From assembly GCA_021736525.1 (NCBI GenBank), contig JAIPFR010000003.1, forward strand, positions 1 to 46,713: a stretch of DNA of 46,713 bases. Reading direction: 5' to 3'. The notes beneath the pieces were generated by a model that saw nothing but the letters and a program-made list of their open reading frames with translations, searched no databases and was not told the origin of the DNA. Shown piece by piece: positions 13,239-22,531 of this stretch (positions are counted from its first letter, which is position 1; the number at the start of each line of letters is the position of its first letter). Origin of the DNA: Spirochaetia bacterium (GTDB taxonomy: Bacteria; Spirochaetota; Spirochaetia; JABMQR01). The position numbers were made by a program, and so were the translations under genes.

Positions 13239-14192
13239 TTAGAATGCCGGTTTGGCAGTGGCTGCATTTGTACTGTCAATTCTTGTTGAAGGGGCTATCA
13301 CCCTTGGAGGAACTGCTTCACCATTAAGAATCTTTACTGCAAGCTCCAACCCTTCTTTACCCGAAGGATTAAAAGTCCATGTAGCAGTCATTTCTCCAGC
13401 TCTAATTGCATCAATCTCGCCTTGCATCCCGTCAAGTCCAGTAATCATCATTTCATCCAATCTTCCTACTTCCTTCACTGCCTGACTGGCGCCCAGGGCC
13501 ATGTCCGCATTTGCAGCCATAATTACATCAATAGTGCCGGGACCATTAGCCTGAAGAATGTTCTGCATAACATTGTATGCTTGAGGACGACGATAATCTG
13601 CCGGCTGTTGAGCAATTACAACGATATCCTGATATTTATCAATTACCTGACGGAAACCGCCGACCCTTTCAACAGAAGTCTGATCACCTGGAATACCCTC
13701 TAAAATAACTACATTGCCCTTCGGAGTACCATTTTTCTCAGTAAGCTTCTCAACAATGTACTCGCCAATTTCATTTCCGATACTTCGGTCATCTACAGAG
13801 ACCAGGGTTGTAGCCTCAGTTCCAAGTATAGCCTTGCCAACAAACATGAATGGAATACCTGCTTCATGCACTTTAGTAAGTTGCTGACGAAGTCCTTCTG
13901 CCTTTGCTGCCTGAACCATAAGCAGATCCATTCCTCGTGCCATCATATCCTCAATACCTGCAACCTGAGTTACTACAGAGCCCTGACCATCAGTAGCAAT
14001 AACCTCAACATTCGGATATTTTGAGGCAGCATCAACTATTTGCTGTCTCTGAGCAATCATCATGGGATGATCAAGACTCTCCTGCGATAATCCGATCACA
14101 TACTTCCCATCGTCAGCTTCTTCTTCTCCTGTCGCCCAGACGAGACTTCCAACAATCAAGAAAATCAAACAAACCACTGCGATCCTTTTCAT
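13239..14192 (-). CDS. Sugar ABC transporter substrate-binding protein (RbsB-like)
   Basis: Signal peptide ending WATGEEE; TDGQGS, LEGIPG, ANADMALGA and ITGLDG motifs. Confidence 0.92.
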   Translation of the reverse strand: MKRIAVVCLIFLIVGSLVWATGEEEADDGKYVIGLSQESLDHPMMIAQRQQIVDAASKYPNVEVIATDGQGSVVTQVAGIEDMMARGMDLLMVQAAKAEGLRQQLTKVHEAGIPFMFVGKAILGTEATTLVSVDDRSIGNEIGEYIVEKLTEKNGTPKGNVVILEGIPGDQTSVERVGGFRQVIDKYQDIVVIAQQPADYRRPQAYNVMQNILQANGPGTIDVIMAANADMALGASQAVKEVGRLDEMMITGLDGMQGEIDAIRAGEMTATWTFNPSGKEGLELAVKILNGEAVPPRVIAPSTRIDSTNAATAKPAF

Positions 14193-14236
14193 GGATACAC
14201 CTCCTCAAATTTTTTCACATTTACTAATGTGTTTTT

Positions 14237-19350: not shown

Positions 19351-21213
19351 CTATAATGAAGAAATGACAGGCAGCTCAATAATAAACCTGCAACCTTTTG
19401 GTTGAGTATTCTCTATATATATAGAACCGCCAATTCTATCAATTATTGAATAACATAACGACAAACCAAGTCCGATGTTTTTGGAGTTTTTCTTTTTGGT
19501 TGAATAAAACGGAAGGAAAATCGATTCCATATCCTTTGCAGGAATTCCCGGTCCGGTATCCTTTATGACCAATCGAGCAATACAGCCAGTATCCGTTTCC
19601 AGAACTTGCGTGCTAATGGTTATTTCTCCACCTTCTGGCATTTCTTCCCGACTGTTTTTCACAATGTTTGTGAGCAACTCCCTGAATTCATTGGAATTCA
19701 AATCAGTAAGAACAGGTTTTTCGGAAAGCTGCAGAGAAAAATATATATTCTCATATTCTTTATTATTTTTAATCAAATTGATAAAGCCAGAAATCAATAC
19801 ATTAAGGTCGGTACGTTCCGTCTTTATAACATGAGCATCTGAAAAATCCACAAGTTTTGATACGATTTGCTTTATAATAAGCAATTCCTCTCGAAGTTCA
19901 GACATAGGATCTTCTAATTGCGCTGATGTTGCCTTTTGTTTGATAAATCGTAGATAGTTAAAGGCTATTTCCAGAGAGTTGTTAATTTCATGGCCAACTC
20001 CAGCCGCAAGCAGACCTATAGAAGCCATGTGATCAGAAAACATTATTTCTTTCTGAAAATTGAAGTAGTCCGTCACATCTTCAATAACGAGAATTTGACC
20101 AACCGTGGATACTCCATCATGAATCGGCAGGATTTTCAATGTATTAATTGTTTGTCTGCCGTTGGTCACTATCGGCACATTGAATAAGATTTTCAATTTT
20201 CTTGATTCAATAGAATCTTTCAAAGCGGCAATCAACCTCTCACTTTGCCATTTAAGCATTGATGATATTGGTTGATGCAGGTAGAACTCCTGTTCAATCT
20301 CAAAGGAATTTTCAAAATACTTATTAGCCATTACTATGTAGTTATTCACGTCAAGAACAAGCAGATTCACCGGCAAGTTTTCAAGAATTGCCTGGTTAAA
20401 ACGTAAAAACGTATAAAATTCTTCCTCTTCAGTCCGTGATTTTTGCTTACGGATATTTTCGGTATAGGTAAGTCTGATTAAATTTATCTTATCTATTGAA
20501 TTTGTCAGTCCTGAGTAAATTGTTTTCCCATTCCTGATAATTGAAACACGATCTGCATAATCATACAGGAGTTCAAAATTATGTGTAATAAAAAGAACTG
20601 CAGTTCCGGCTTTTTTGAGCTGAAACAAAATATTTGAAAAAATTGAAATATGCATATAGGGAAGTTGCGATATAACTTCATCAATAATAAGTACATCAGG
20701 ATTCTGCTCTGCAAGCCGTATCAGTTCTAGAATAACATAATCAGGTTCTTTCAACTGCTCAATCTTGTCTAGAACATGCAGTACAAGTCCATATTTACCG
20801 ATTATTTCTTCAGCTAGTGAAATCAACCGTCCTTTCGGTACCAGTATTCCTGTAAAGCTTGTTGGAGTTGTATAAAGGAGATGTTCCCAAACGGTGAATT
20901 TGGGATTTGCTGTCCTTGATTGATGTATCATTACAATGTGGGGTTTCTTTGTCTGTTTTCTACCAGTTTCTTTGGGAGGCTGAACTTTTGCTAGAATAAC
21001 TTTTCCTGAGTCAGGTTTTACTATTCCGCATATGACTCTTCCCAGTGTGGATTTACCACTCCCCTTTTCCCCAATTAACGCATGGATTTCTCCAGTTTTC
21101 ATAGAAAGACTGACATTATCAAGTATGTTATTAAAACGGTTTTTCAGGGATATATTCTCAAGTGAGACTATCGTTTTCTCAGGCTGTTCCGTTTTCGGCC
21201 TCTCTGATTCCAT
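19351..21213 (-). CDS. Soluble hybrid sensor kinase: sugar-ABC ATPase domain fused to PAS-HisKA-HATPase
   Basis: First ~250 aa: GEIHALIGEKGSGKST, IHQ Q-loop, VLIIDE, FITH H-loop, DRVSIIRNGK. Then PAS-like ILENLPVNLLVLD...MANKYF, H-box AAGVGHEINN, NIVKNS, DTGPGIP, FLPFYSTK and GLGLS. No TM segment seen. Confidence 0.9.
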   Translation of the reverse strand: MESERPKTEQPEKTIVSLENISLKNRFNNILDNVSLSMKTGEIHALIGEKGSGKSTLGRVICGIVKPDSGKVILAKVQPPKETGRKQTKKPHIVMIHQSRTANPKFTVWEHLLYTTPTSFTGILVPKGRLISLAEEIIGKYGLVLHVLDKIEQLKEPDYVILELIRLAEQNPDVLIIDEVISQLPYMHISIFSNILFQLKKAGTAVLFITHNFELLYDYADRVSIIRNGKTIYSGLTNSIDKINLIRLTYTENIRKQKSRTEEEEFYTFLRFNQAILENLPVNLLVLDVNNYIVMANKYFENSFEIEQEFYLHQPISSMLKWQSERLIAALKDSIESRKLKILFNVPIVTNGRQTINTLKILPIHDGVSTVGQILVIEDVTDYFNFQKEIMFSDHMASIGLLAAGVGHEINNSLEIAFNYLRFIKQKATSAQLEDPMSELREELLIIKQIVSKLVDFSDAHVIKTERTDLNVLISGFINLIKNNKEYENIYFSLQLSEKPVLTDLNSNEFRELLTNIVKNSREEMPEGGEITISTQVLETDTGCIARLVIKDTGPGIPAKDMESIFLPFYSTKKKNSKNIGLGLSLCYSIIDRIGGSIYIENTQPKGCRFIIELPVISSL

Positions 21214-22531
21214 ACTTTTCTATCTTTTTGTATAAGGTTTTTCTGGTCATATTTAATTCTGCTGCAGCTCTTGACTTGTTGAACCCATGCCTGAAAAGAA
21301 CAGTCATTATTATTTCTTTTTCAGCCTGCTCGACAGTACTAAAAGAATGAATCCCGCTCTCTTGAATATTCTTTCTTATATTCACCGGTAAATCTTCTGG
21401 ATAAATACAATCGCTTGACGAGATGGCAAGCGAGTACTGAACAGCATTCTTTAACTCCCTGATATTCCCCGGCCAGGTGTAGTGCATAAAAATATCGAGC
21501 ACCTCCTCAGAAAACTTTTTGCACGAATTGGCAAGATCAGCCCCCCCCGCCACAAAAACATTTACTAATCCTGGAATATCACATAAACGATCACGCAACG
21601 GCGGTAAATTAAGAACCACAGTACTAAGTCTGTAGTAAAGGTCTTCTCTGAATTCTTTTTCACCAATCATGTGCTTTATGTTTTTATTGGTAGCTGCAAT
21701 AAAACGAACATCAACAGTAATTACTTTATTACCGCCAATTCTACGTATTTCATTGTTCTGAAGAGTCCTGAGTATTTTTGACTGAATAGATAAAGACATG
21801 TCGCCAATTTCATCAAGAAACAATGTATGCCCGTTCGCCAATTCAAATATTCCCTTGTACTCCTCTTCTGCACCTGTATAGGCTCCTTTGTTATGTCCAA
21901 ACAACTCATTGTCGAGAATACTTTCCTGAAATGCAGCACAATTGATTTTATGAAGCTCTTTATCTTTTCGCAGTGAATTTTGATGAATAAATTCTGCAAG
22001 CAACTCTTTTCCAGTTCCATTCTCTCCAAGAATTAGAATTGGAAGATCCGTTGAAGCCAGCTTAGCCGCTTTTTCCATCACTTCCGACATAACCGGAGAT
22101 TCAGTTTTAAAAAATCCTTGTTTTTTCACAGCACGGGTATGATTACTGTACCTTGAATCAACAGAAGATAACGCCTTCTCAACTACTTCCAGCAGTTCAT
22201 CAAAATCAATGGGTTTCTGGACATAATCAAAAGCTCCTCTTTTTATTGAATCTACGGCGGAATCGATCGAGGCATATCCTGTAATCATAATTACCGGGGG
22301 GGGATTGCGCCGCGATATAAATATATCAAGAAGGTTCCTGCTATCTTCAGTTCCCAGCATTAAATCCTGTATTATCAGGTCAAACTGCTGCTTCTCAATC
22401 AACTCGAGGGCTGACTTGGAATCAGGAGCATATGCGGCAATATACCCTAAAGGCTGAAAATTTATTTGCAGGCTTCTATACGTGCGAACATTATCATCAA
22501 CTATAAGGATTGACCTTTTCATAGCTTTCAC
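21179..22531 (-). CDS. NtrC/AtoC-family sigma54-dependent response regulator
   Basis: Receiver domain (ILIVDD, IIQDLML, FDYVQKP), AAA+ domain (GENGTGKE, ELFGHNKGAYTGA, LFLDEIG, FREDLYYRL, WPGNIREL) and Fis HTH. Start GTG 22531 or ATG 22522. Confidence 0.95.
   Translation of the reverse strand: MKAMKRSILIVDDNVRTYRSLQINFQPLGYIAAYAPDSKSALELIEKQQFDLIIQDLMLGTEDSRNLLDIFISRRNPPPVIMITGYASIDSAVDSIKRGAFDYVQKPIDFDELLEVVEKALSSVDSRYSNHTRAVKKQGFFKTESPVMSEVMEKAAKLASTDLPILILGENGTGKELLAEFIHQNSLRKDKELHKINCAAFQESILDNELFGHNKGAYTGAEEEYKGIFELANGHTLFLDEIGDMSLSIQSKILRTLQNNEIRRIGGNKVITVDVRFIAATNKNIKHMIGEKEFREDLYYRLSTVVLNLPPLRDRLCDIPGLVNVFVAGGADLANSCKKFSEEVLDIFMHYTWPGNIRELKNAVQYSLAISSSDCIYPEDLPVNIRKNIQESGIHSFSTVEQAEKEIIMTVLFRHGFNKSRAAAELNMTRKTLYKKIEKYGIREAENGTA

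Follow-up and report, generated by a model that had tools for sequence, protein, structure and literature searches.

The window, by which we mean the whole stretch of 46,713 nucleotides analysed from a Spirochaetia bacterium, carries an activator/kinase gene pair (Table 1) that very probably, to judge from the homologous loci, activates the -24/-12 promoter at 19182-19197. The kinase is headed by an ABC ATPase domain (NBD) that, on sequence comparison, derives from the N-terminal half of a CUT2 importer ATPase, and it belongs to a family that is recurrent in spirochaete genomes, unnamed and uncharacterised. Our best explanation as a whole, to which we give about even chances, is a sigma-54 two-component switch combined with a postulated sensing of the importer through NBD-permease contact: The soluble histidine kinase would phosphorylate the NtrC-type activator, which would bind upstream of the promoter and switch on the operon of DJ1x2, Zn-dehydrogenase and CUT2 importer.

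Table 1. Features of the locus, in the direction of transcription; kinase domain limits are those of the AF2 model.
Feature	Position	Strand	Description
KDPG/KHG aldolase	28607-27924	-	upstream gene, co-directional cluster
IolG-like GFO/IDH/MocA oxidoreductase	27881-26859	-	upstream gene, co-directional cluster
Second Zn-dehydrogenase	26833-25796	-	upstream gene, co-directional cluster
FGGY kinase	25754-24237	-	upstream gene, co-directional cluster
MBL hydrolase	24235-23339	-	upstream gene, co-directional cluster
DeoR regulator	23319-22528	-	upstream gene, co-directional cluster
Activator	22531-21179	-	REC + AAA+ (GAYTGA) + HTH_8; sigma-54 enhancer-binding response regulator
Histidine kinase P0001, 620 aa, soluble	21213-19351	-	Pfam, AF2 model
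Kinase NBD	21186-20464	-	aa 10-250
Kinase PAS	20367-20077	-	aa 283-379; Pfam PAS weak
Kinase DHp + catalytic domain	20073-19369	-	aa 381-615
Candidate activator binding sites	19346-19279		three TGTTTAC copies + 23-nt inverted repeat
Sigma-54 -24/-12 promoter TGGTACGGATCCTGCT	19197-19182	-	predicted start site near 19171
DJ1x2, tandem DJ-1/PfpI protein	19125-17806 (ORF to 19158)	-	two DJ-1_PfpI stretches (Pfam)
Zn-dependent medium-chain dehydrogenase	17793-16732	-	ADH_N + ADH_zinc_N; IolM/Tdh-like, below equivalog cut-offs
CUT2 ABC ATPase, two fused NBDs, RbsA/AraG-like	16707-15211	-	two ABC_tran
Single CUT2 permease, RbsC-like	15211-14237	-	BPD_transp_2
Periplasmic sugar-binding protein, RbsB-like	14192-13239	-	Peripla_BP_4; signal peptide read at N-terminus

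ORF calls, Pfam and direct reading of the sequence bear out the seven minus-strand ORFs from activator to binding protein as the initial annotation had described them, with their coordinates and domains, the 35-bp overlap of activator and kinase (21179-21213) and the GAYTGA loop. Its picture of a self-contained module had to be given up: The seven genes close a run of 13 co-directional genes that extends from 28607 to 13239 with gaps of at most 45 nt, except for the 192-nt promoter gap, and the activator and kinase genes are the end of a larger sugar/polyol catabolic operon, not an isolated module. The accompanying remark that no sugar kinase is present is wrong in this context, because the FGGY kinase is encoded just upstream on the same strand within that operon. 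The top sigma-70-like site of the upstream region is TTGACA-18-TATTCT at 28650-28621, a consensus match only. The DeoR gene overlaps the activator ORF by 4 bp if the latter starts with the GTG at 22531, and lies 5 nt from it with the ATG at 22522, which may be the actual start. In Pfam, the activator matches Sigma54_activat (1e-65), Response_reg (4e-20), HTH_8 (5e-15) and AAA_lid_14, and D56 is the likely phospho-acceptor.

The promoter sequence TGGTACGGATCCTGCT (minus strand) has GG-N10-GC spacing, as exact as had been claimed, and agrees with TGGCACGNNNNTTGCW at 10 of its 12 specified positions. The degenerate pattern TGGYAYN5YTGCW occurs three times in the window against 0.42 expected, a count reached by 1 of 100 shuffles, and only the occurrence at 19182-19197 is intergenic and faces a gene. 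It is the comparative data from homologous loci that turn this modest single-site statistic into a strong promoter call. In 76 flanking intergenic stretches of these loci we counted 36 sites, where 300 shuffles gave 0.40 on average and never more than 3; the density of such sites is 0.495 per kb of intergenic and 0.034 per kb of coding DNA, and most of them lie 20-60 nt before the first gene of an importer operon. These figures, together with a position and orientation in the window like those in the homologues, speak against a match by chance, or an organism without sigma-54, with the five genes transcribed by read-through or from an unrecognised promoter. We consider this reading very improbable, although it would accommodate the incomplete match, the five other 10/12 matches to TGGCACGNNNNTTGCW in the window (four within ORFs) and the lack of any listed terminator-like site from the stop of the kinase gene (19351) to the promoter (19197); a single one nearby, at 19404-19391, is inside the end of the kinase gene. 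It would also fit the outcome for rpoN, whose presence in the host the initial annotation had wanted confirmed: Searches with PF04552 and PF04963 did not find it in the window's own assembly (1.19 Mb, 84 contigs, 74% complete). Against this stands its presence, recognised by the Sigma54 DNA-binding domain, in 29 of 30 relatives searched, both same-genus genomes included. Moreover, the dedicated activator gene is one of three clear Sigma54_activat genes in the window's genome, and exact TGGCAYN5TTGCW sites number four there compared with one for the reversed control. No sigma-70-like site is listed in 19159-19350. The other CUT2 importers of the window have no 10/12 sigma-54 site; for two of them (6005-10561 and 38013-41623), LytS-type kinase genes adjoin the importer or lie a few kb off instead.

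The putative activator binding sites, some 110-175 nt before the predicted start site, include an inverted repeat found by repeat search (arms 19279-19301 and 19304-19326, 78% complementary). We treat these sites as candidates only, because their sequences are not conserved in the orthologous loci compared.

The kinase family occupies roughly 110 places in 65 of the 301 genomes of the class. From these we fetched 40 neighbourhoods of full-length homologues, 20 among the best-scoring rows (one from a same-genus genome) and 20 from further down the list; they are not independent, because several are orthologous pairs. In 38 of the 40 the activator gene immediately precedes the kinase gene on the same strand, and a two-NBD CUT2 ATPase is found within 5 kb in 34, which ties the kinase family to CUT2 importers. 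In 34 of the 40 neighbourhoods, the intergenic DNA up to 400 nt from the pair contains a site that agrees with TGGCACGNNNNTTGCW at 10 or more of its 12 positions. Five first genes left unlabelled by BLAST were sampled, and they encode four Peripla_BP_4 binding proteins and one nucleoside hydrolase. The window's seven-gene order, for which synteny had been sought, did not turn up in any other genome searched. Of the closed loop proposed initially, one half stands, in that the pair most likely drives the operon; that the importer itself signals via the ATPase domain of the kinase is something we only infer.

The kinase has no membrane span, since its maximum Kyte-Doolittle(19) value is 1.35. Its AF2 model has a mean pLDDT of 79.7, and its Pfam matches include ABC_tran (2e-18, aa 31-180) and HATPase_c (1e-21). 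The top NCBIfam matches of aa 8-264 are CUT2 ATPases, namely YtfR (1.3e-34) followed by AraG, XylG and AlsA, and the domain aligns with the N-halves of RbsA-type ATPases. An NBD copied from the first half of an importer ATPase makes a transporter-to-kinase link a reasonable idea. The NBD is N-terminal and the kinase core hangs from its C-terminus, the position that regulatory domains take in importer ATPases such as MalK. Walker A, Walker B and Q-loop are kept and the LSGGQ signature is lost: The corresponding segment reads LKEPDY in the window kinase and still LSVGNQ in deep paralogues, while the window's importer ATPase has LSVAEQQ in its first NBD and LSGGNQQ with Walker A GAGRTE in its second. 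Among 37 family members G48, G53, K54 and D178 are invariant, and Q98 and E179 occur in 90% or more.

In the proposed mechanism, the two NBDs of a kinase dimer would dock under the permease dimer, replacing or alternating with the RbsA-type ATPase, and hold ATP that is poorly hydrolysed. The ligand-loaded binding protein and the permease would then drive closing and opening of the NBDs, and the PAS domain would relay this movement to the kinase core. We lean slightly against the docking step itself. A complex prediction with two permease copies and NBD aa 1-262 returned 'weak support' (score 0.50, best of three controls 0.00), with runs agreeing in at least 81% of contacts and partner pLDDT of at least 73. 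Of 80 solved complexes, 58 pass this mark, as do 2 of 110 mismatched pairs; at scores of 0.60 or under it was passed by just 7 of the 80 and by both of these mismatches. The predicted complex may show likeness only, because NBD-permease complexes of other ABC importers have been solved. The window's own clade is the most diverged after the Q-loop (VWEHL/IWEYL in place of VAENL, which is also the RbsA-type sequence) and at the signature, so that any docking in the family may be weaker or altered there.

A kinase that simply sensed the imported compound in the cytoplasm would equally give rise to adjacency and co-regulation. With the same wiring, the NBD would never touch the transporter; the compound or a metabolite of it would be sensed by, for example, the PAS domain, the NBD would serve as a soluble module for ATP/ADP-dependent dimerisation or for reading the energy state, or would have turned into a ligand-binding domain, and the loop with the importer would close through the substrate alone. 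Nothing requires a further NBD, because the adjacent importers own a complete two-NBD ATPase, and the kinase lacks a membrane span. Within the NBD, conservation is highest at the nucleotide-binding residues, the PAS domain and its preceding helix are well conserved, and the closest orthologues function without an adjacent importer. This account leaves unexplained why a CUT2 first half, of all domains, forms the input end and why the family persists beside CUT2 importers (34 of 40) and not other uptake systems. It also has to contend with the weak positive complex prediction and with the Q-loop and following segment (TVAENLF), which are common to RbsA-type ATPases and retained in most kinase clades. 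On balance we find cytoplasmic sensing less likely than importer sensing.

The DJ1x2 gene more likely starts with the ATG at 19125 than at 19158: The former is preceded, at 5 nt, by GGGGAG and yields a protein of 439 aa, in line with orthologues of 437-439 aa, and with the latter the leader from the predicted start site near 19171 would be just some 12 nt long. DJ1x2 was found in 6 of the 301 class genomes, in five of them adjoining the window's kinase clade. It is the one target gene common to the window and the four closest readable orthologous loci (g4, L117-L120), with 67-69% identity compared with 44-46% for the kinase. These loci have no CUT2 importer within about 9 kb; they have two sigma-54 promoters, one driving the DJ-1 gene and the other two Zn-dehydrogenases, a glycyl radical enzyme and its activase. 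All of this would suit a pair that regulates a DJ1x2/dehydrogenase pathway in response to an intermediate, e.g. a reactive 2-oxoaldehyde, the importer being a recent passenger and the NBD, whose motifs are most degenerate in this clade, an evolutionary leftover. A mere leftover is at odds with the intact Walker A, Walker B and Q-loop glutamine of the clade, which a quick tree nests among importer-adjacent kinases. In another spirochaete family, moreover, DJ1x2 lies in operons that also encode a CUT2 importer and an FGGY kinase but not the NBD-kinase, which places DJ1x2 and the importer in one pathway. We judge this alternative improbable and retain the switch with importer sensing.

Among known systems, the tandem Arabidopsis DJ-1D resembles DJ1x2 in having two DJ-1/PfpI domains per chain, and its structures are the closest solved relatives (3uk7, 3.9e-20; 4ofw, 1.4e-19), albeit as a weak match. 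DJ-1D has glyoxalase III activity. In contrast to it, DJ1x2 has the Cys-His pair (FMCHGP) in the C-terminal domain only, CH aligning opposite GG between the halves, and its gene is located in sugar/polyol import operons. The activator shares the REC, AAA+ and Fis-type HTH architecture of the AtoS/AtoC, ZraS/ZraR and NtrB/NtrC systems, and the kinase core resembles their PAS-HisKA-HATPase kinases; ThkA (3a0r) and ZraS (9jfj) are the nearest solved kinases by sequence. The top NCBIfam matches of the activator are AtoC (7e-113), ZraR and NtrC, and that of the kinase part is AtoS (9e-52); all fall far short of the equivalog cut-offs. None of AtoS, ZraS and NtrB contains an ABC NBD, and AtoS and ZraS are membrane proteins, whereas the window kinase is soluble.

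In BceS-BceAB, DcuS-DctA and CbrA/CrbS the kinase contacts or contains a membrane domain, the CbrA/CrbS kinases being fused to an SLC5 transporter domain; here, in contrast, a cytoplasmic importer ATPase domain is fused to a soluble kinase. These systems and MalK-MalT, treated in part in sources on transporter-coupled sensing (e.g. PMC9169098, PMC7096432, PMC5715377), have in common with ours that the input of the regulator is a transporter or a transporter-derived module. A dedicated sensor adjoining a CUT2 sugar importer is likewise a feature of the XylFII-LytS-YesN type. Such sensors of CUT2 importers comprise a binding protein, a LytS-type kinase and an AraC-type regulator; the kinase is a membrane protein with an extracellular binding-protein partner, and the regulator is of sigma-70 type. 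The window carries sets of this kind at 258-5827 and 32706-35802. The pair described here differs from them in being cytoplasmic, NBD-headed and, by prediction, sigma-54 dependent.

A close parallel to the sensing proposed for the window kinase is PstSCAB-PhoU-PhoR/PhoB, where a PAS kinase that lacks a periplasmic sensor follows the conformation of an ABC importer via the importer's NBD. Variants of PstB with a predicted locked-open or locked-closed state are reported to give a sufficiency or starvation signal without transport (PMC5775613), and the PAS domain of PhoR is bound by PhoU (PMC13577022, PMC9239213). Sensing by the NBD-kinase would be a fused version of this PstB-PhoU-PhoR logic: The NBD belongs to the kinase chain itself, a PhoU-like adaptor is lacking, the importer is of the CUT2 sugar type with its own ATPase, and the output is a sigma-54 activator instead of an OmpR-type regulator.

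The NBD-kinase of the window (P0001) belongs to a common, unnamed family of soluble sensor kinases that carry the ATPase domain (NBD) of a ribose-type, RbsABC-like (CUT2) importer as their head and are wired to the sigma-54 promoters of sugar importers. In the window, the seven ORFs of the module (13239-22531, minus strand) have exactly the coordinates and genes of the initial annotation, and, as it had stated, the ORFs of activator and kinase share 35 bp. The importer genes constitute a complete CUT2 set: Pfam and NCBIfam identify a two-NBD ATPase, a BPD_transp_2 permease and a Peripla_BP_4 protein, whose AraG/RbsA, RbsC and RbsB matches all stay below the NCBIfam equivalog cut-offs and hence do not fix the substrate. 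The module had also been described as self-contained and as lacking a sugar kinase. Both descriptions are wrong once the upstream genes are considered: The regulator pair formed by activator and NBD-kinase continues a catabolic cluster on the same strand with gaps of at most 45 nt. Counted from the GTG at 22531, the activator ORF overlaps a DeoR gene by 4 bp, and upstream of the latter, again with gaps of at most 45 nt, lie genes for an MBL hydrolase, for an FGGY kinase that comes closest to xylulo-/gluconokinases, for another Zn-dehydrogenase, which resembles IolM/Tdh, for an oxidoreductase resembling IolG (280 bits vs a cut-off of 355) and for a KDPG/KHG aldolase. The top sigma-70-like match of the region is located directly upstream of the aldolase gene. 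As to the substrate of the module, a cyclitol or polyol may be suspected from the IolG/IolM-like enzymes.

Coordinates of the module and of further features in the window
Feature	Coordinates	Strand	Basis
Activator: REC, Sigma54_activat, AAA_lid, HTH_8	21179-22531	minus	Pfam
NBD-kinase, 620 aa: ABC_tran (aa 31-180), weak PAS, HATPase_c	19351-21213	minus	Pfam
Candidate activator sites	19279-19346		
-24/-12 site upstream of DJ1x2	19197-19182	minus	consensus match
DJ1x2, two DJ-1/PfpI stretches	ORF 17806-19158	minus	Pfam
Zn-dependent medium-chain dehydrogenase	16732-17793	minus	Pfam
Two-NBD ABC ATPase	15211-16707	minus	Pfam; NCBIfam nearest AraG/RbsA
Single BPD_transp_2 permease	14237-15211	minus	Pfam; NCBIfam nearest RbsC
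Peripla_BP_4 binding protein	13239-14192	minus	Pfam; NCBIfam nearest RbsB
First set of LytS-type kinase and Peripla_BP_4	258-5827		Pfam (His_kinase)
LytS-type kinase ORF of first set	258-2177		
-24/-12-like site upstream of this ORF	2217-2232	minus	consensus match
CUT2 importer near first set	6005-10561		
ORFs of the D-psicose 3-epimerase region	12041-12958; 10627-12066	plus; plus	NCBIfam
ORF, 317 aa	28764-29717	plus	
Second set of LytS-type kinase and Peripla_BP_4	32706-35802		Pfam (His_kinase)
ORF, 463 aa	36625-38016	minus	
Degenerate -24/-12 matches	37729-37744; 37927-37942	plus; plus	degenerate pattern
CUT2 importer near second set	38013-41623		

The kinase has no hydrophobic span (Kyte-Doolittle(19) maximum 1.35), and its AF2 model (mean pLDDT 79.7) comprises the NBD (aa 10-250), a low-confidence linker (252-260), a helix, a PAS domain (283-379), the DHp helices (381-456) and the catalytic domain (466-615). 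The H-box histidine H408 (GVGHEINNSL) is invariant among 37 aligned members and HATPase_c is matched at 1e-21 in Pfam; HisKA is reported by Pfam for most relatives and not for the kinase of the window. The kinase core is nearest to AtoS in NCBIfam, with a score below the equivalog cut-off. A Foldseek comparison with the PDB lists no solved chain spanning NBD and kinase part; its matches cover one or the other singly, with a TM-score by query length of at most 0.34.

The NBD has retained Walker A (GEKGSGKST), the Q-loop (Q98) and Walker B (IIDE): G48, G53 and K54 of Walker A and D178 of Walker B are invariant in the 37 members, and at least 90% of them have Q98 and E179. The LSGGQ signature is lost, reading LKEPDY in the window and L(N/S)LSD(R/K) in most members, and the D-loop position, where SALD is expected, reads VISQL in the window and ALEKL in the family; the kinase of the window (ITHN) and most, not all, members have the H-loop histidine. 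An alignment to both halves of the adjacent RbsA-type ATPases groups the NBD with the first half, which in CUT2 ATPases carries the weak signature LSVAEQQ, while the second half carries LSGGNQQ and the Walker A sequence GAGRTE. Since, moreover, a signature resembling that of the first half (LSVGNQ) survives in deep kinase paralogues only, the NBD represents a copied CUT2 ATPase half, namely the Walker-A-competent one. Within a homodimer of the kinase, the NBD would face only degenerate signatures, and we infer that it could bind ATP and would probably hydrolyse it poorly.

In the activator, Pfam detects a REC domain (Response_reg, 4e-20) with the acidic pocket D12 and D13 and with D56 (LIIQD) as likely phospho-acceptor, an AAA+ domain (Sigma54_activat, 1e-65) with GENGTGKE, LFLDEIG and GAYTGA, and a C-terminal Fis-type HTH (HTH_8, 5.2e-15, aa 399-440). 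GAYTGA is found in 24 of 38 homologous activators and GAFTGA in 6, and the pattern search matched neither in 8. The nearest NCBIfam families are AtoC/ZraR/NtrC, with scores below the equivalog cut-offs. The 192-nt gap 3' of the kinase gene holds the -24/-12 promoter with exact spacing that had been noticed initially: In TGGTACGGATCCTGCT, a distance of 10 nt separates the GG and GC doublets, and agreement with the consensus TGGCAC-N5-TTGCW extends to 10 of its 12 specified positions; no sigma-70-like site is listed in this gap. A degenerate -24/-12 pattern yields 3 sites in the window (0.42 expected), among which this one alone is intergenic and aimed at a gene. The degenerate plus-strand matches lie 198 nt apart within the minus-strand ORF of 463 aa and may be chance occurrences. 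The predicted transcription start near 19171 leaves about 12 nt to the ATG at 19158; because of this short leader, of the GGGGAG located 5 nt upstream of a second ATG at 19125 and of the length of the resulting product (439 aa; 437-439 aa in orthologues), we take 19125 as the start of DJ1x2. Three copies of TGTTTAC and a 23-nt inverted repeat lie 110-175 nt upstream, the customary range for activator sites. As this motif has no evident counterpart shared with the orthologous loci of genus g4, whose kinases are closest among the readable loci, these elements are treated as candidates only. No Rfam family reaches its gathering score across the whole window.

The proposal that the pair acts on the sigma-54 promoter of the operon is well supported by comparison of 40 neighbourhoods of kinase matches (about 20 kb each), 20 of them taken among the best-scoring matches, including one same-genus genome, and 20 from further down; they include several orthologous pairs from related genomes and are therefore not independent. 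The activator lies directly upstream of the kinase on the same strand in 38 of the 40 loci, and a two-NBD CUT2 ATPase is encoded within 5 kb in 34. The typical layout is divergent, with binding protein, ATPase and permease on one strand and activator and kinase on the other; first genes that BLAST had left unlabelled encode Peripla_BP_4 proteins in four of five sampled cases and a nucleoside hydrolase in the fifth. Of the 40 loci, 34 have an intergenic site with at least 10 of the 12 consensus positions no more than 400 nt away from the pair: The 76 flanking intergenic stretches (16.8 kb) contain 36 such sites, compared with a mean of 0.40 and a maximum of 3 in 300 shuffles, and the density of sigma-54-like sites is 0.495 per kb in intergenic vs 0.034 per kb in coding sequence. 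Most sites are positioned 20-60 nt 5' of the first importer gene. This constitutes strong comparative evidence that the pairs drive the sigma-54 promoters of neighbouring operons and, by extension from the homologous loci, that the site upstream of DJ1x2 is real. At locus L149, near-identical sites with 12 of 12 positions (TGGCACGGTAATTGCA/T; 5867-5882 and 7619-7634) each precede their own binding-protein gene upstream of one importer, which suggests two binding proteins under one NBD-kinase pair.

The rpoN gene, whose presence in the host the initial annotation had wanted confirmed, was detected in relatives and not in the genome itself: Searches of the window's genome (1.19 Mb, 84 contigs, 74% complete) for the DNA-binding (PF04552) and core-binding (PF04963) domains of RpoN gave no match, and PF04552 was found in 29 of 30 relatives searched, including both genomes of the same genus (2.7 and 4.4 Mb). 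The window's genome encodes three clear sigma-54 activators and contains four exact consensus sites, compared with one for the reversed control, two of which sit on contigs carrying the other activators. Given the incomplete assembly, the relatives with the gene, the activators and the consensus sites, a true absence of rpoN from the host appears unlikely.

The other CUT2 importers of the window have no sigma-54-like site in front of them; LytS-type kinase genes lie near two and an AraC-type regulator by one. The two sets of LytS-type kinase and Peripla_BP_4 genes lie near these two importers, the first of them including the AraC-type regulator, so that together with the NBD-kinase the 47-kb window holds at least two kinds of sensor for one transporter class. 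The site CGGCACCGGCCTTGCA, which matches 10 of 12 consensus positions and begins with CGG instead of TGG, precedes the start of the LytS-type kinase ORF of the first set by about 40 nt. Downstream of a fucose-isomerase-like gene and a CUT2 importer, an ORF matches the NCBIfam D-psicose 3-epimerase (344.7 vs a cut-off of 300); these genes suggest a rare-sugar utilisation operon convergent with the DJ1x2-importer operon. The ORFs of 317 and 463 aa match no Pfam family at E <= 1e-5.

Among 5.8 billion proteins searched, the kinase retrieved about 70 clusters of relatives, 600-625 aa long and covering the whole query, with ABC_tran and HATPase_c and usually also HisKA and PAS. Where taxa are given, they are Spirochaetia/Spirochaetales, one Spartobacteria and one Planctomycetota, and the database names are generic only, e.g., 'ATP-binding cassette domain-containing protein'. 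Within the class of the window, full-length matches (E <= 1e-45) occur in 65 of 301 genomes, with four of them in some genomes. A language-model atlas contains one close cluster (score 0.99, Spirochaetota) and ABC_tran-HisKA clusters that differ in length, some of which come from Actinomycetota and have GAF (score 0.83); as leads only, these last indicate that related architectures may exist in Actinomycetota. A scan of genome contigs with the family alignment was dominated by generic kinase and ABC patterns and returned one full-length relative (L001) among the 80 loci kept; a scan of metagenome contigs with the single kinase protein returned two loci, each an ordinary ABC ATPase. Full-text literature searches and a look-up within a 2026 preprint on kinase diversity turned up no description of an NBD-headed kinase architecture.

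A quick maximum-likelihood tree was computed for 48 kinases, namely that of the window, those of the 40 loci and 7 from databases. In this tree, the kinase of the window clusters with three proteins from metagenomes (P0004-P0006, 54-59% identity), and genus g4 (L117-L120, 44-46% identity) forms the sister clade; the two groups are nested within kinases that adjoin importers. At the g4 loci, no CUT2 importer is encoded within about 9 kb. These loci have two sigma-54 sites, one of which precedes a DJ1x2 orthologue (67-69% identity) directly downstream of the kinase, and the other a divergent operon that encodes two Zn-dehydrogenases together with a glycyl radical enzyme of PFL-like type and the corresponding activase. 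This second site is perfect or near-perfect in L117-L119 (e.g., in the region L118:2079-7545). The Zn-dehydrogenases are IolM/Tdh-like, and the glycyl radical enzyme belongs to the PFL2/glycerol-dehydratase family (836 bits vs a subfamily cut-off of 678; no equivalog reached); the operon would be a glycyl radical enzyme pathway under sigma-54 control. DJ1x2 was found in 6 of 301 class genomes and adjoins this kinase clade in 5 of those 6, and contigs of equal length hint that P0005 and a DJ1x2 homologue, P0144, lie on one 44,205-bp contig. The NBD of the window's clade is the most altered, with VWEHL/IWEYL at the position where most kinase paralogues, like RbsA-type ATPases, read VAENL; the L151 type exemplifies a clade that retains VAENL/LSVGNQ. 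The importer-less g4 loci and this alteration argue against a simple reading in which the importer feeds the kinase in the window's clade.

DJ1x2 connects the module to a wider catabolic context. Its two halves align with each other, the C-terminal one having FMCHGP (PfpI-type Cys-His) where the N-terminal one has Gly-Gly, and the closest solved relatives are tandem Arabidopsis DJ-1D chains. The family comprises 267 proteins at E <= 1e-20, many of which are over 50% identical and all of which are named only 'DJ-1/PfpI family' or 'protease I'; a 41%-identical DJ1x2 lies at the G128 locus, which was left out of the comparison. In f65, another family of the phylum, DJ1x2 occurs in 7 of 17 genomes, and the orthologues in the six fetched loci (L160-L165, 57-63% identity) all adjoin CUT2-type importer genes. 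A two-NBD ATPase with two permeases is found in five of them, L162 being cut at the contig start with a permease fragment only. An FGGY kinase is visible in four, the fetched stretch stopping short of that position in the other two, and three short-chain dehydrogenases are encoded in each of two scanned loci. The binding protein of the f65 operons is unusually long (about 500 aa) with a partial Peripla_BP_4 match only. NBD-kinase, activator and a sigma-54-like site ahead of the operon are lacking in all six loci. Taken together, the f65 and window contexts identify DJ1x2, dehydrogenases, FGGY kinase and CUT2 importer as a recurrent catabolic set, which in the window is placed under a probable NBD-kinase/sigma-54 switch. 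This recurrence makes a pure 'reactive carbonyl defence' unit unlikely. Speculatively, DJ1x2 might turn a 2-oxoaldehyde derived from a sugar into an aldonate by a reaction of the glyoxalase III type: In such a route, dehydrogenases would form a 2-keto-aldose, DJ1x2 would yield the aldonate, and the FGGY kinase and the KDPG-type aldolase would carry out the remaining steps. DJ1x2 is also of interest by itself, as a tandem DJ-1 protein that is widespread, well conserved and unstudied and is linked to operons for sugar/polyol import.

For the question of whether the NBD docks on the permease, we predicted a complex with two copies of the permease and NBD (aa 1-262) from alignments of our own. The prediction scored 0.50, compared with 0.00 for the best of 3 controls ('weak support'), with at least 81% contact agreement between runs and a partner pLDDT of at least 73. 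Of 80 solved complexes, 58 attain the mark in question, as do 2 of 110 pairs that are mismatched; with scores of at most 0.60, it is attained by only 7 of the 80 solved complexes and by both passing mismatches. Because NBD-permease complexes of other importers are solved, the positive prediction may show likeness only. The CUT2 origin of the NBD, the persistent CUT2 adjacency, the kept Q-loop region and the attachment of the kinase at the NBD's C-terminus argue for docking on the CUT2 permease, which we hold to be a tangible possibility of somewhat less than even chance. The complete ATPases that the importers have of their own, the lack of an importer at the g4 loci and the diverged interface segment in the window's clade argue against docking. 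A purely cytoplasmic role of the NBD we consider slightly less likely than docking. The closed loop of the initial annotation, in which the importer signals to the kinase that activates the importer's own operon, is a fair hypothesis, unproven and weakest in the window's own clade.

In its most far-reaching form, docking would give rise to a second, non-transporting complex of NBD-kinase dimer, CUT2 permease dimer and binding protein, i.e., an importer turned receptor with one paralogue per importer, an arrangement that we deem somewhat unlikely. An external sugar or polyol would then be perceived by the binding protein and relayed via the permease to an ATP-dependent closure of the NBD, which would be passed on to the cytoplasmic kinase and finally to the sigma-54 output. 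Recognition of the kinase family would allow many spirochaete sugar importers to be assigned to sigma-54 regulons, and the ABC NBD would join the list of histidine-kinase input domains. A related known system is PstB-PhoU-PhoR, for which the reporting from importer to kinase has been debated for decades and for whose signalling complex there is no structure. With the importer's ATPase domain built into its own chain, such a kinase would offer a compact and tractable model of this coupling. If the receptor complex is real, it would be a natural single-chain form of PstB-PhoU-PhoR signalling, of which a spirochaete genome has up to four or more paralogues. We rate the family as a variant of transporter-coupled two-component signalling that is new in the variant.
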